A stretch of DNA of 64,000 bases from an uncultured Gammaproteobacteria bacterium (GTDB lineage: Bacteria; Pseudomonadota; Gammaproteobacteria; Xanthomonadales; SZUA-36): positions 3,580 through 67,579 of the forward strand of contig CAVPUV010000068.1 in the NCBI GenBank assembly GCA_963708905.1, in the 5' to 3' direction. Below the pieces are notes generated by a model. The model saw only the letters and a program-made list of their open reading frames with translations, was not told where the DNA came from and ran no database searches. Made by a program: the position numbers and the translations under genes. Of this stretch, positions 6,969-36,015 are shown one piece after another. Each line of letters opens with the position of its first letter. Within the stretch, counting starts at the first letter, position 1.

Positions 6969-7053
6969 GGGGTCAGAGTAAAGTGCCAGAGTCGTCATCC
7001 GGGCTGTCGGGGACATCCAGGTCCGGATGACTCTGGCACTTTACTCTGACCCC
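6969..7053. repeat. 85-bp palindromic MITE/REP-like element, copy A
   Basis: GGGGTCAGAGTAAAGTGCCAGAGTC(GTC)ATCCGG ... CCGGATGACTCTGGCACTTTACTCTGACCCC, with arms of about 31 nt. A near-identical copy in inverted orientation lies at 9583-9667. Confidence 0.85.
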
Positions 7054-8393
7054 AAATTTCTTCTTTTACCGGGCCGCTGAACAAAAGGCCGGATCAGCCG
7101 CTGCACGTTGACCCGCGCCTTGATGCGCGCGCACAGCAGGAAGGAACCCACCAGCTTGCGATGCAGGAATACCGTTTCAGGCGGCGGCGCGCGGAACTCA
7201 CCGTGGCTGGCGAACAGCATGTCGAAACCCGCATCACGCGCCCTCGCAACCAGGTCGGAGGCGCCAAAGTCGTATATCTTGTCGTAACGGATCGGTTCAC
7301 ACACGATGCGAATCACCTCCAGCACCCGCTGTGCGTGCTGCGGACTGTCGCCGGCACCGAGGTAGCCAATCTGCTCCGCATAATGCCGTAGCGCCCCTGC
7401 ATCATTCTCGATCAAGGCCCGGGCGATCCGGCCATAACGTGCGGTGAATTCCTTGCTGAACGTGACGGTCGAACCAAAATCCAGCAGCACGATGCGGCCG
7501 TCCTGCGGCCGGTACAGGTAATTGGCGAAGTTGGGGTCGGACTGCATGATGCGGAATTCGAACAACTCCCGGAACATAAGATGCTCCAGCAATGCGCCGA
7601 CGTGGTTGCGCCGCTTTTGCCCGACGCCCGCCTCGCCCAGTGACTCCAGCGCCGCGCCGCTGACGTAGTCCATCGCCAGCACGCGTTTGGTGGTGAGGTC
7701 AGCGTGCACCCGCGGCACGAGCAAGCGCGCATCATCCGCAACCAGGGCCCGGTAGTCGCGCAGATAGTTTGCCTCGGCGAGGTAATCTGCTTCTTGTGTG
7801 AGTTGACGCTTGGCTTCGGCAACGATGCCGCTGACGTCCATTGCCATCGGCAACACGCGGGCCAGGCGCAAAAACATCGCCAGGTTTTCGACATCGCTGC
7901 CGATGCTCCTGGCCACGCCGGGATACTGGATTTTCAGCGCCAGGTCACGGCCGTCGCGGGTCAGTGCGCGATGCACCTGCCCGATCGAAGCAGCGGCAAG
8001 GGGTTCGAAATCGAAGCGCGCGAATTTCTCCTGCCAGCCCTTGCCATAGGCCTGACCCATCACGCGCCGCACCTGACTTTGCGGCATGGTGTCGGCGGCG
8101 TCCCGTAGTACCGCCAGCACATCGGCAAATTCCCGCGGCAGGAAATCAGCGCTTTCCATGGACAGCAGCTGGCCCATTTTCATCGCCGCGCCACGCATGC
8201 CGGCCAGACGCCTGGCCAGCTTTTCGGCATTGGCCGCGGTCAGGAACATGTTGACCGCCACGGCGGGCGAAGTGCCCGCCAAACGCCGCACGCCTTCGGT
8301 CAGCCCACCCACCGCCAGTTCACCCGCCGTCATGCCGAGCCGTAGCAAACGACCCAGGCGGCTTGTCGGCACACGGGATTTGCGACGCGGCAT
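7041..8393 (-). CDS. ABC1/UbiB-family atypical kinase
   Basis: 450 aa. ABC1 kinase-like pattern (LGRLLRLG..., ASIGQVHRA, LKIQYPG, DPNFANY). The last three codons plus stop (GSE-TAA) lie inside repeat copy A. Confidence 0.8.
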   Translation of the reverse strand: MPRRKSRVPTSRLGRLLRLGMTAGELAVGGLTEGVRRLAGTSPAVAVNMFLTAANAEKLARRLAGMRGAAMKMGQLLSMESADFLPREFADVLAVLRDAADTMPQSQVRRVMGQAYGKGWQEKFARFDFEPLAAASIGQVHRALTRDGRDLALKIQYPGVARSIGSDVENLAMFLRLARVLPMAMDVSGIVAEAKRQLTQEADYLAEANYLRDYRALVADDARLLVPRVHADLTTKRVLAMDYVSGAALESLGEAGVGQKRRNHVGALLEHLMFRELFEFRIMQSDPNFANYLYRPQDGRIVLLDFGSTVTFSKEFTARYGRIARALIENDAGALRHYAEQIGYLGAGDSPQHAQRVLEVIRIVCEPIRYDKIYDFGASDLVARARDAGFDMLFASHGEFRAPPPETVFLHRKLVGSFLLCARIKARVNVQRLIRPFVQRPGKRRNLGSE

Positions 8394-8396
8394 GGC

Positions 8397-9545
8397 TTAC
8401 ACAGCCTGCCCGGCGGCATGACCCGAGGACCAGGCCCATTGGAAATTGAAACCGCCCAGATGACCGCTCACATCGACCACTTCACCGATGAAAAACAGTC
8501 CCGGTACGCGGGATTCCATGGTCTTCGACGACAGTTCGCGGGTATCCACGCCACCCAGCGTGACCTCCGCGGTACGGTAGCCTTCGGTTGCGGCTGGTTT
8601 CACTTCCCAGGCCTGGAGTTCAGCCGCGATTGATTCCAGCCGCCGCTGCGGCCAGTCTGCAAGCGCCTGGTCCTTTGCTTGCGGCCAGTGCATCGCTTCA
8701 AGCTGCAATACCAACTGCCTTGGCAAACAGGTATCGAGCTGCGTGCGCAGCAGTGAGCGTGGGAGCTCGCGCTTCCAGAGTTTCAGCAAAGCGCGGGCAT
8801 CCCGACCCGGCAGCAGGTTGATGCGAATCGTTTCACCCGGTTTCCAGTAACTGGACATTTGCAGCACCGCGGGACCGCTCAGGCCGCGATGGGTGAACAG
8901 CAGATCTTCGCGAAACTCCGCGCGTTGATTGGCAATCGTCACTTCACAGGAAACCCCGGACAATTTGCTGCAACAGTCGTTCATCGCGCCCGTGAAGGTA
9001 AACGGCACCAGCCCTGCCGTGGTGGGCAGCAGCCGCAGTCCGAACTGCCGGGCCAAAGTGTAGCCAAAACCCGAGCCGCCCAGACTGGGTACGGACAGGC
9101 CACCTGCGGCTACCACCAGGGTCTCGGCGGCAAAAGTGCCCTGGTTGCTGCTGAGGCGATAAGCCTCCTGGTGTGTCACGCCGGCAGTCTCGCAGCCAAT
9201 GCGTATTTCCACGCCAGCCCGGGCACATTCGTCGAGCAGTAGTGCAACGATCTGTTTCGACGATTGCCGGCAGAATAGCTGGCCGCTCAGACCATTGACG
9301 GTTTGTTTTTCAAAATATTCAATGTGGTGGCGTTGCAGGAGCTCAATGAAATCCCATTGGGAGTAGCGGCTCAGGGCGCTTTTGCAAAAATGCGGATTGG
9401 CCGAAAGGAACCGCTCCGGGCTGACATGCAGATTGGTAAAATTGCACCGGCCGCCGCCCGACATGAGGATTTTCTTGCCGACCTTGTTGGCGCGTTCCAG
9501 CACCAGCACCCGCCGGCCGCGTTGGCCGGCGGTGAGGGCACACAT
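8397..9545 (-). CDS. BaiN/YhiN(HI0933)-family NAD(FAD) flavoprotein, N-terminus disrupted by repeat copy B
   Basis: Family hallmark MSGGGRCNFTN. The longest ATG-initiated ORF starts inside the Rossmann motif. In-frame upstream codons (to 9581) encode DTIIIGAGAAGL but have no ATG/GTG/TTG start, and the frame hits a TGA inside the repeat. Confidence 0.7.
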   Translation of the reverse strand: MCALTAGQRGRRVLVLERANKVGKKILMSGGGRCNFTNLHVSPERFLSANPHFCKSALSRYSQWDFIELLQRHHIEYFEKQTVNGLSGQLFCRQSSKQIVALLLDECARAGVEIRIGCETAGVTHQEAYRLSSNQGTFAAETLVVAAGGLSVPSLGGSGFGYTLARQFGLRLLPTTAGLVPFTFTGAMNDCCSKLSGVSCEVTIANQRAEFREDLLFTHRGLSGPAVLQMSSYWKPGETIRINLLPGRDARALLKLWKRELPRSLLRTQLDTCLPRQLVLQLEAMHWPQAKDQALADWPQRRLESIAAELQAWEVKPAATEGYRTAEVTLGGVDTRELSSKTMESRVPGLFFIGEVVDVSGHLGGFNFQWAWSSGHAAGQAV

Positions 9546-9582
9546 CAGGCCGGCAGCGCCGGCGCCGATGATGATGGTGTCA

Positions 9583-9667
9583 GGGGTCAGAGTAAAGTGC
9601 CAGAGTCATCCGGACCCGGATGCCCGCGACAACCTGGATGACGACTCTGGCACTTTACTCTGACCCC
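9583..9667. repeat. 85-bp palindromic MITE/REP-like element, copy B (inverted relative to A)
   Basis: Same terminal 25-mer GGGGTCAGAGTAAAGTGCCAGAGTC on both arms. The arm carrying the extra GTC is on the opposite side to copy A. The central roughly 20 nt are similar to the reverse complement of the centre of A. Confidence 0.85.
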
Positions 9668-9682
9668 AATTTTCAAGTTTCA

Positions 9683-10141
9683 TCAGTTCTGTACTTGCCA
9701 GCTGCCGTCGGCCTGACGGCACGCGGTGCCGTAAACCTGCTCCGTGTTGCCGCCGATGGTTGCATCCACGGTATATTCGCGACACGGCCCGCTGTTTGAT
9801 TCAATGGTGCTGGTAGGCGTCACGGCGTACTCATACCCGCTGTCGGGATTGACCCAGGTGCTGCGTACGCCGGTGCGCACGTTTTCCAGCGCCAGCGCCG
9901 TTTTCATCTGGTCCTGCTCATCCATGTGACGGCCAATGTTGCCGCCGATCATCGCGCCCGCCAGCGATCCGACGATGGTCGCAACCGCCCGGCCGCTGCC
10001 GCTGCCAATCTGGTTGCCGAGAACGCCGCCGGCAACGGCTCCAATCAACACGCCCTGGTCCTGTTGCGTGGGCATATCGGTACAGGCGGATACCAGCAGT
10101 ATCGAGCTGGCACATGAAATCAGCATCCATTTCTTTAACAT
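9683..10141 (-). CDS. glycine-zipper / 17-kDa surface-antigen-like lipoprotein
   Basis: Start chosen at ATG 10141, with RBS AAGAGGA 6 nt upstream. Lipobox LLVSAC. Glycine-zipper segment GAVAGGVLGNQIGSGSGRAVATIVGSLAGAMIGGNIG. Confidence 0.7.
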   Translation of the reverse strand: MLKKWMLISCASSILLVSACTDMPTQQDQGVLIGAVAGGVLGNQIGSGSGRAVATIVGSLAGAMIGGNIGRHMDEQDQMKTALALENVRTGVRSTWVNPDSGYEYAVTPTSTIESNSGPCREYTVDATIGGNTEQVYGTACRQADGSWQVQN

Positions 10142-10287
10142 CACCATTCCTCTTTTTAGCGCTTGAGGCACCCATGATACCCCGCAATTGGGGACTTCGC
10201 GATTCATTGACCACTTTGGATAGCGAACCGCATCGAATGGTTCCCGGGTTAGGCCGCACCACCAGGACCAGCGTGGAAATTCGGAAC

Positions 10288-34959: not shown

Positions 34960-36015
34960 CTAGCGCATCTGGCTTTGCAGCTTTTCCAGCGCTGCGCGGC
35001 CGGGATTGAGCTCTTCGAAGGTAAATGCTTTCAGCGGCTTGCTGGCGGTACCTGCAATGGCGTGCATTTCGGGCCATTGTTCGTCGATGAACAGCAGGCC
35101 GGTGGGGATTTCTCCCTGGTCACGATGCTTTTCCAGGTAGCGCAGTGCGACACTGCGCCGGGTGGGGTCGTATTTGGGATCAGTTTTCTTCAGCACGACG
35201 GTGGCACCGTCGTGCATTTTCACGCTGACCGTTTCGCCCTCGGCATAGTGCGCGGTGATTTCGCGGGCGGGCGGCACAAAGTCGGTCGCAATGGCCTGGT
35301 GCTTGTGTTCCCTGGTATAAGCGTAGCTCTTGGTCGAACCGACATGATCATTGAACGTAACGCAGGGCGAGATCACATCGAGCAGAGCGCAGCCTTTGTG
35401 CGCAATACCCGCCTTGATCAGGGATACCAGTTGCTCGCGATCGCCGGAAAAGCTGCGGGCGACAAAACTGGCCCCCATCGAGATGGCGGCGGCGACCGGA
35501 TTGATGCTCTGCATCTGGTTGACTTCGCCCTTCTTGGCCGTACTGCCGGGATCAGCCGAGGCAGAGAATTGTCCCTTGGTCAGGCCATATACACCGTTGT
35601 TCTCGATCAGATAGAGCATGTTGAGGTTGCGCCGGATGGCATGGCCAAACTGACCAAAGCCGATGGACAGCGAATCGCCGTCACCGGAAACGCCAATGCA
35701 GATCAGGTCGCGATTGCCGGCGTGGGCGCCAGTGGCAACCGAAGGCATGCGGCCATGCACCGAATTGAAACCATGAGCGCCGTGGACGAAGTAGGCCGGG
35801 GTTTTGGATGAGCAACCGATGCCCGACAGCTTGATCAGCTTTTCCGGGGCGATGGACATTTCCCACAATGCCTGCACCAGTGCCGCTGTGATCGAATCGT
35901 GACCGCAGCCGGCACAAAGCGTGGACAGGCTGCCTTCGTAATCCCGCTGCAGCAAACCCAGCGCGTTGCGTTTCTGGCCGGGAAGATCGATTTTCGGTTT
36001 AGCCAGGTAGGTCAT
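34960..36015 (-). CDS. korB: 2-oxoglutarate:ferredoxin oxidoreductase beta subunit (KorB type)
   Basis: 351 aa. CAGCGHD cluster motif and TPP motif GDGDSLSIG...ENNGVYGLTKGQ. The ATG overlaps the korA stop by 4 nt. Confidence 0.85.
   Translation of the reverse strand: MTYLAKPKIDLPGQKRNALGLLQRDYEGSLSTLCAGCGHDSITAALVQALWEMSIAPEKLIKLSGIGCSSKTPAYFVHGAHGFNSVHGRMPSVATGAHAGNRDLICIGVSGDGDSLSIGFGQFGHAIRRNLNMLYLIENNGVYGLTKGQFSASADPGSTAKKGEVNQMQSINPVAAAISMGASFVARSFSGDREQLVSLIKAGIAHKGCALLDVISPCVTFNDHVGSTKSYAYTREHKHQAIATDFVPPAREITAHYAEGETVSVKMHDGATVVLKKTDPKYDPTRRSVALRYLEKHRDQGEIPTGLLFIDEQWPEMHAIAGTASKPLKAFTFEELNPGRAALEKLQSQMR

Follow-up and report, generated by a model that had tools for sequence, protein, structure and literature searches.

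A repeat palindrome in the start region of a flavoprotein gene that stays under purifying selection

Introduction

What becomes of a gene when the region around its start codon is overwritten by a repeat? The question is raised by a 64,000-nucleotide stretch of contig CAVPUV010000068.1 (assembly GCA_963708905.1; hereafter the window) from an uncultured gammaproteobacterium, in which an 85-nt palindrome separates a lipoprotein gene from the FAD-binding codons of a BaiN/YhiN-type flavoprotein gene. An earlier note, made from the letters of the window, had read the palindrome as a clean insertion of 86 bp whose removal restores the flavoprotein gene. Here the junction is compared with those of related bacteria. 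The comparison points to the replacement of the native start region by a palindrome together with a short tail, in a gene that is under purifying selection and is therefore most likely still translated.

The genome under study (G000) comprises 4.02 Mb in 81 contigs; other G labels denote other genomes and L labels denote fetched contigs. Close orthologues of the flavoprotein were located by protein search, and the contigs were then compared at the junction.

Results

The palindrome and the start region of the flavoprotein gene

The three genes of interest are carried on the minus strand of the window in the order lipoprotein, flavoprotein and ABC1/UbiB kinase (Table 1). The flavoprotein matches the family models PF03486 (HI0933_like; 292 bits) and TIGR00275 (380 bits) over their full length, including the N-terminal GxGxxG Rossmann strand, and both matches begin at the Asp codon 9581-9579. 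The first ATG of the gene, at 9545, lies 3' of the codons for the GxGxxG motif and is preceded by the 12 codons DTIIIGAGAAGL, which encode this strand. Upstream of the Asp the frame is open only back to 9605, where it is closed by a TGA in the right arm of the palindrome. The stretch from this TGA to the Asp is free of in-frame ATG, GTG and TTG codons, and its only near-cognate codon is the CTG at 9590-9588. The minus strand here reads ...CAGAAC TGA TGA AAC TTG AAA ATT (GGGGTCAGAG...CTCTGACCCC) T GAC ACC ATC ATC ATC GGC. The earlier note had placed the palindrome between the lipoprotein stop and the FAD-binding codons, and had described both the lack of an upstream canonical start and the TGA inside the repeat copy; all of this is borne out, with the palindrome at 9583-9667.

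The palindrome is built from the inverted repeat 9583-9610 / 9640-9667, whose 28-nt arms are 96% complementary and stand 29 nt apart. Its arms are identical to the consensus of a wider repeat family (see below), and the window contains four copies of the 25-nt arm, against none in 100 shuffled versions. The predicted RNA fold of the palindrome region has an energy of -73.5 kcal/mol (z = -9). Inverted paired units that are divided by a short spacer and can fold into one long hairpin are what is expected of a REPIN (repetitive extragenic palindromic (REP) doublet forming a hairpin).

Table 1. Features of the locus and of the second repeat copy in the window.
Feature	Coordinates	Strand	Remarks
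Near-perfect REPIN-like palindrome, 85 nt	9583..9667	.	two inverted 25-28-nt arms (GGGGTCAGAGTAAAGTGCCAGAGTC...), centre ~29-35 nt
7-nt tail GAAAATT (+ strand AATTTTC)	9668..9674	-	first G doubles as the G of the TTG
TTG, start codon of element-free relatives	9674..9676	-	out of the flavoprotein frame in G000
In-frame TGA in the right arm of the palindrome	9606..9608	-	sets the upstream limit of the flavoprotein frame
In-frame CTG, three codons before the Asp	9588..9590	-	overlaps the stop of the 29-codon frame as CTGA
Open reading frame of 29 codons + stop (LKIGVRVKCQSRHPGCRGHPGPDDSGTLL, stop)	9587..9676	-	from the ancestral TTG through the whole hairpin to TGA 9589-9587
HI0933-like / TIGR00275 (BaiN/YhiN-type) flavoprotein coding region	8397..9581	-	conserved Asp to stop
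Glycine-zipper / 17-kDa-antigen-type lipoprotein gene, upstream	9683..10207	-	stop 3-6 nt ahead of the flavoprotein TTG in element-free relatives
Second copy, same 85-nt subfamily	6969..7053	.	centre inverted relative to the 9583-9667 copy
7-nt tail of the second copy, GAAATTT	7054..7060	-	

The same junction in close relatives takes several forms (Table 2). In the element-free relatives the lipoprotein stop lies 3-6 nt ahead of a TTG, and this start is followed by codons for G(S)D(P/L)CY and then DTIIIGAGAAG. More distant relatives have other genes upstream, ATG starts and an aromatic residue ahead of the Asp. Compared with L138, which carries the closest of the element-free alleles, G000 has 17 nt (GGGTCTGACCCCTGCTA, codons 2-7) replaced by 91 nt, namely AAAATT and the 85-nt palindrome.

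Table 2. The junction between the lipoprotein and flavoprotein genes, in gene sense. Identities are approximate protein identities to G000.
Source	Identity	Junction	Reading
G000	100%	TGA TGA AAC TTG AAAATT (85 nt) T GAC ACC	element present
L138	97.5%	TGA TGA AAC TTG GGG TCT GAC CCC TGC TAT GAC ACC	MGSDPCYDT, element-free
L139, L140, L269	94%	AAC TGACCCC T GAC ACC	G000-type right junction; 104 nt deleted between two CTGA repeats
L142	91%	TGA TCGCCGGC TGA ACC ATT CCG CCC TAT GAC ACC	no canonical start; ATT aligned with the TTG
L270	~91% (97% to L142)	TGA TCGCCGGC TTT AAATTT (85-nt element, 2 nt different from that of G000) T GAC ACC	element present
L141, L271	89%	TGA AAC TTG GGT GAC CTC TGC TAT GAC ACC	MGDLCYDT, element-free
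G001 (same genus)	85%	TAA AACCC (153-nt decayed element) TGC TAC GAC ACG	in-frame TTG within the element, annotated MTTLTPYSESCYD

The GAAAATT tail is absent from the element-free alleles and fits a motif found beside other members of the family. At 57 family ends, seven flanking positions are skewed towards A..T.TC, with T at position 6 in 39 of the 57 against a background of 21%. Similar tails are seen at the second copy in the window (GAAATTT, in both G000 and L138) and next to the L270 copy (AAATTT). By these comparisons the tail arrived together with the palindrome.

Purifying selection on the flavoprotein gene

Nine orthologues of the flavoprotein gene could be aligned over 1185 nt (394 codons) with no gap, frameshift or internal stop, and pairwise dN/dS values among them range from 0.11 to 0.20. 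Substitutions were assigned to branches by polarising them with outgroups, and their ratios were compared with neutrality. The G000 branch has five nonsynonymous and 10 synonymous changes (P = 0.0009), the L270 branch three and seven (P = 0.004), the L139 branch 15 and 29 (P = 2e-8; 44 substitutions, omega ~0.18) and the L142 branch nine and 17 (P = 2e-5). Moreover, across the nine lineages the 36 nt upstream of the ATG contain four variable sites, all of them synonymous third positions. The lineages that lack a canonical start thus appear to have kept the enzyme, including its N-terminal strand. Because the gene is under purifying selection it is most likely still translated, and the substitution pattern suggests that it is probably still expressed in G000. 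The gene seems to tolerate weak starts.

Inactivation by the element had been one of the outcomes envisaged in the earlier note. This would make the flavoprotein gene a young pseudogene in G000, the element haplotype having removed the sole usable start with decay yet to come. Several features of the locus fit such a history: no in-frame ATG, GTG or TTG precedes the GxGxxG codons, the sole near-cognate codon lies inside a very stable hairpin, no Shine-Dalgarno-like sequence or promoter-like site is found nearby, and the flavoprotein family does not occur in all relatives, being absent in 13 of 41 genomes. Against it, the branches leading to G000, L270 and L139 (with its near-identical copies) each show a strong synonymous excess over 394 intact codons, and constraint is still evident on the L139 branch after its 44 substitutions. 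L142, with ATT replacing the TTG at the homologous position, is also constrained. With an intact reading frame and purifying selection in every lineage without a canonical start, inactivation is considered unlikely, though it deserves more weight than the other rival explanations.

Translation from ATG 9545, to give a 382-residue protein without the first β-strand and the GxGxxG loop, is very improbable. This ATG is the first canonical start and is the choice of automated annotation in G000, L139, L142 and L270. However, the matches to both family models start 12 codons further upstream, at the Asp, the intervening 36 nt vary only at synonymous third positions, and the ATG is not preceded by a ribosome-binding site. 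In addition, the GxGxxG dinucleotide-binding motif that such a protein would lack is required for FAD binding in Rossmann-fold flavoproteins.

Origin of the junction

The proposal of the earlier note was that the element had recently inserted between the start and codon 4 of a gene reading TTG-MKIDTIIIG, that precise excision would restore this gene, and that the ends of the element were thereby fixed at 9582/9583 and 9667/9668. The arithmetic is correct, since deletion of 9582-9667 (86 bp) yields an in-frame TTG AAA ATT GAC ACC. The TTG is indeed the ancestral start, as it is used by L138, L141 and L271, and arms that match the family consensus are expected of a young copy. However, the relatives that use this TTG read TTG GGG TCT GAC CCC TGC TAT GAC or TTG GGT GAC CTC TGC TAT GAC, so that their N-termini are MGSDPCYDT or MGDLCYDT and never MKID. 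The earlier note had itself named a different N-terminus in element-free relatives as an outcome that would refute the proposal, and a different N-terminus was found. AAAATT is absent from the element-free alleles and matches tails elsewhere; it belongs to the recurring GAAAATT tail and not to native codons. The ends are not fixed to the nucleotide and cannot be placed at 9582 and 9667, because AAAATT travelled with the palindrome. Moreover, the Cys-Tyr codons (TGCTA-T) of the relatives are missing from G000, which lacks 17 nt and has 91 nt in their place when set against L138, and the junction is shared among lineages that are 6-9% diverged. By chance alone, one deletion in three would restore a frame, and the restoration seen on removal of 86 bp is a coincidence. 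Overall, it can be said with high confidence that the change in G000 was not a clean recent insertion, and the specific 86-bp event is highly improbable.

Nor does the site look as if it had been visited once. The right junction CCCC-T-GACACC of G000 is common to L270 and to the deletion derivatives L139, L140 and L269; these are independent metagenome assemblies, and an assembly artefact was ruled out on this ground. The element-bearing alleles share both junctions even though they belong to separate lineage pairs. Presence and absence of the element differ within two pairs that are ~97% identical, G000 with L138 and L270 with L142, and in neither pair are the junctions clean. In G001 a decayed copy occupies the same site; its centre matches the reverse complement of the G000 centre at 23 of 35 positions, against six of 35 in the same orientation. 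Finally, the element-free alleles carry GGGGTC|TGACCCC (L138) or GGG|TGACCTC (L141), which look like the outermost tips of the element brought into contact. The joined tips resemble asymmetric REPIN excision products, and might be either scars or a pre-existing target. The decayed and inverted copy in G001, the shared junctions and the joined-tip alleles together make the site look repeatedly occupied. With element remnants in every relative examined, the junction appears from these alignments to be a long-used landing or retention site, which is at odds with the single recent insertion first proposed.

Further sightings of the junction were sought more widely. A metagenome scan with an exact 41-nt pattern from the 5' coding region returned no match, and the matches to a 23-nt pattern were all in unrelated genes for FAD proteins that do not have the junction. 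Solo-tip scars of the form GGGGTC(0-6 nt)GACCCC number three in G000 against a rough chance expectation of ~5, which is no enrichment; two of the three have family-type flanks.

In a separate lineage, the other-genus orthologue in L008 (G013) is preceded, at 2720-2900 of that contig, by three tandem palindromic repeats of ~57 nt (caactgtaagagcgcccttgggcgcgaccgggctttcggccgcaagcg...) that are unrelated to the element described here. The upstream side of the flavoprotein gene draws repeats in other lineages too.

The repeat family and its transposase

Paired elements with the 25-nt arm number 17 in the G000 genome and comprise 52-nt elements, whose loop is 2 nt long, along with two subfamilies of 85 nt. 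Arms also occur singly, and ends of the type ...TTTACTCTGACCCC (the CTCTGACCCC ends) form a wider set of 63. The copies are dispersed and mostly intergenic, as REPINs are. The earlier note had already treated the palindrome as one copy of a repeat family, and a link to a transposase can now be added. Outside the window, a pair of inverted arms at C44:34205-34229 and 35006-35030 encloses a single-copy gene for a 214-residue Y1 protein (G000:C44:34250-34891). This protein matches Pfam Y1_Tnp (PF01797) at 44 bits, above the cut-off, and has an HVH (HUH) motif and a YIELNP tyrosine motif. Its best NCBIfam match is NF047646, REP-associated tyrosine transposase (RAYT), at 63.9 bits, which is below the curated cut-off of 80 bits, and its sole match in the PDB is the E. 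coli TnpA-REP structure 4ER8 (E = 0.001). Orthologues with 82-90% identity carry the same flanking arms in G010 (C81) and G012 (C1). Among the genomes compared, 19 of the 25 from the bacterial family carry the arm, and all 16 from other families of the order lack it. Together, these data make it very probable that the palindrome is a REPIN-like dimer of the 25-nt arm, from a family tied to a Y1 (HUH) transposase of the RAYT kind or of the related TIRYT (terminal inverted repeat-associated tyrosine transposase) kind.

The element behaves as a REPIN without being a classical GTAG REP. Its arm, GGGGTCAGAGTAAAGTGCCAGAGTC, lacks both self-complementarity and a GTAG tag, and contains two direct CAGAGT units. 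The flanks of the 17 copies show no target-site duplication (at the 9583-9667 copy they are GAAAATT and TGACACC), and the sequence next to the family copies shows no identifiable conserved tetranucleotide target. A literature search with the arm sequence returned unrelated primer matches only. The least probable reading of all derives the palindrome, in miniature form, from a DDE-type transposon (such as a Tn3-like one, with inverted repeats beginning GGGG) and makes it independent of a RAYT: the arms are indeed terminal inverted repeats beginning GGGG and not self-palindromic REPs, but no copy is flanked by a target-site duplication, the only gene bracketed by the arms, in three genera, is the Y1/HUH transposase gene, and the asymmetric 7-nt tail with retained tips resembles the REPIN excision product of Pseudomonas (PMC3116915).

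Other observations were made on the family. An exact 24-nt version of the arm, GGGGTCAGAGTAAAGTGCCAGAGT, is found in more than 115 contigs of gammaproteobacterial metagenome-assembled genomes (L023-L102 among the loci), labelled as Lysobacterales/Xanthomonadales, Pseudomonadales (Azotimanducaceae), Wenzhouxiangellaceae, Elongatibacter and, in one bin, Limisphaerales. This breadth is unusual for a REP-type repeat, and the NCBI labels of such genomes may be unreliable. At many element ends the last 8 nt plus a 7-9-nt tail are repeated in tandem, for example CTGACCCC ACTCCTCTT CTGACCCC ACTCCTCTT; duplications of this sort lie at C65:30798-30840, C74:2212-2250, C81:19966-20005, C52:32478-32517, C9:53760-53804 and C81:236988-237020, and these 15-17-nt end-plus-tail duplications could be by-products of cutting and rejoining by the transposase. 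In G000:C22:6300-8700 a unit of ~100 nt (agatgcgttcaag...ggattgtccaaacatctcggtt) occurs four times, each time terminating in one arm (TACTTTGGCACTTTACTCTGACCCC); it is a composite repeat with one arm only, and two of the units are merely 128 nt apart. A second Y1 transposase gene, at G000:C7:9593-10093, encodes a protein with 58% identity to the C44 protein over 167 residues.

The ABC1/UbiB kinase reading frame takes its final five codons and its TAA stop from the second copy in the window (...KRRNLGSE, stop; 7041-7060). In L138 the kinase gene stops at a TAG of its own, after which come the GAAATTT tail and an arm. A clean empty site for this copy was sought in L138 and L139 and none was found: L138 bears the element, with the contig ending inside it, and in L139 the kinase gene ends earlier and a different palindromic element of ~170 nt stands in the place of the second copy.

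A possible route to translation

If the flavoprotein gene is still read in G000, where might translation begin? In the element-free relatives no ribosome-binding site precedes the TTG. Since this codon lies 3-6 nt past the lipoprotein stop without such a site, the flavoprotein gene is probably translationally coupled to the lipoprotein gene in these bacteria. In G000, ribosomes leaving the lipoprotein gene would reinitiate at the old TTG (9676-9674), and would translate the 29-codon frame through the hairpin, melting it. Termination at TGA 9589-9587 would be followed by reinitiation at the overlapping CTG (9590-9588), to give (M)TPDTIIIG..., with (M/L)TPDTIIIGAGAAGL as the expected peptide. 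The stretch CTG ACC CCT GAC is common to G000, L270 and L139, and in L139 the 104-nt deletion places the same CTG over the TGA of the lipoprotein gene itself. The earlier note had offered two alternatives to inactivation, the CTG inside the element (LTPDTIIIG) and the truncated ATG start. The former is favoured here, and the latter is disfavoured by its loss of the GxGxxG motif. This relay remains a tentative proposal, somewhat less likely to be right than wrong in its details. Leaving the exact relay route aside, the explanation as a whole is judged reasonably probable.

Two other routes were rejected. A programmed frameshift from the TTG frame has no slippery site to act on, and read-through of TGA 9608-9606 from an ATG overlapping the lipoprotein stop is discounted because that frame is closed in L270.

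A number of points weigh against the proposed explanation. CTG is a very weak start codon in bacteria, and the CTG at 9590-9588 sits within a hairpin of about -70 kcal/mol. The 29-codon relay frame is not conserved: L270 has TTT in place of the TTG, which leaves the frame without a canonical start. L139 offers another candidate start, a TTG that lies in frame 36 codons upstream and overlaps the lipoprotein gene. The selection seen on terminal branches may also be compatible with a very recent inactivation in G000 alone. As to the element, the score of the C44 transposase (63.9 against 80 bits) falls short of the NCBIfam cut-off for RAYTs. As to the history of the site, the gene tree is (G001,(L141,(L142+L270,(G000,L138,L139)))) and the haplotypes conflict with it, in that G000 groups with the element-free L138 but has the junction of L139 and L270. 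Such a distribution needs either recombination between co-occurring strains or repeated, site-specific (parallel) events.

It can further be imagined that the hairpin repeat has been co-opted as part of a translational relay that sets a low, coupling-dependent level of the flavoprotein, and that repeated RAYT-linked occupation drives start-codon turnover (TTG, element-borne TTG, ATT and CTG) between close lineages while the enzyme stays under selection. This extension is speculative and is thought unlikely.

The palindrome starts 15 nt past the stop of the lipoprotein gene (the interval 9668-9682). REPs of E. coli within ~15 nt of a stop codon have been reported to stall terminating ribosomes, thereby reducing expression of the upstream gene. 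By analogy, the palindrome may influence the lipoprotein gene as well.

Discussion

The locus carries a caution for the reading of single genomes. An in-silico excision that restored the reading frame seemed to prove that the insertion was clean, and true empty sites exposed the coincidence. At the same time, one junction provides a natural series of intact, scarred, occupied, deleted and decayed states. The series could inform how RAYT-linked hairpin repeats enter and leave sites, which bases travel with them (the 7-nt tail) and which remain (the GGGGTC / TGACCCC tips), and how genes survive the loss of a canonical start codon. If reinitiation at the CTG is true, this would be a clear case in which a repeat element has altered how translation starts while the gene survived. 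The overwriting of the start region in a constrained gene is a useful natural example and not a new principle.

REPs that overlap gene ends or lie inside open reading frames are already known (Di Nocera et al., 2013, PMC3733652), as are the palindromic elements (RPEs) of Rickettsia. The present family resembles them in that a copy supplies the stop codon of a gene (6969-7053) or sits at the N-terminus of an annotated reading frame. It differs in that an in-frame start and six native codons have been removed here from a gene that is constrained in several lineages. A limited literature search found no report of a repeat that removes a start codon while the gene stays under selection.

The closest parallels are with the REPIN-RAYT systems (Bertels and Rainey, 2011, PMC3116915; Bertels et al., 2017, PMC5581495). 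As in these, inverted units with a short spacer can fold into a long hairpin, copies number in the tens and lie mostly between genes, one gene for an IS200-like Y1 transposase is flanked by the same repeat, and repeat and transposase co-occur across the bacterial family. The excision product in P. fluorescens SBW25 is asymmetric, comprising the hairpin and a 5' tail, with the last ~6 bp left behind (PMC3116915), and the unit described here is likewise asymmetric, with a hairpin, a short 5' tail and last bases that may stay behind. In contrast to those systems, the arm is not a small palindrome, has no GTAG tag and consists of two direct half-units containing CAGAGT; the copy number is low (~17 dimers); and the element is known here from presence and absence between lineages. 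The IS200/IS605 insertion sequences and the palindrome-associated transposable elements (PATEs), with IS608 as the model, likewise combine an HUH/Y1 enzyme, hairpin recognition, the lack of target duplication and asymmetric ends, whereas the present family has neither the distinct left and right subterminal hairpins of IS200/IS605 (IS608) nor an identifiable tetranucleotide target.

Finally, TIRYT transposases, described by Di Nocera et al. (2013, PMC3733652) in Stenotrophomonas, Acidobacteria and others, are RAYT-like enzymes whose genes are flanked not by REPs but by long terminal inverted repeats with a shared terminal GGGGWSAS motif, and these TIRYT / TIRtron repeats are also dispersed as dimers. 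The first eight bases of the arm, GGGGTCAG, fit GGGGWSAS, a match that rests on the published consensus only. The element is a fresh member of the REPIN/RAYT kind, and stands nearest to the GGGGWSAS inverted-repeat class.

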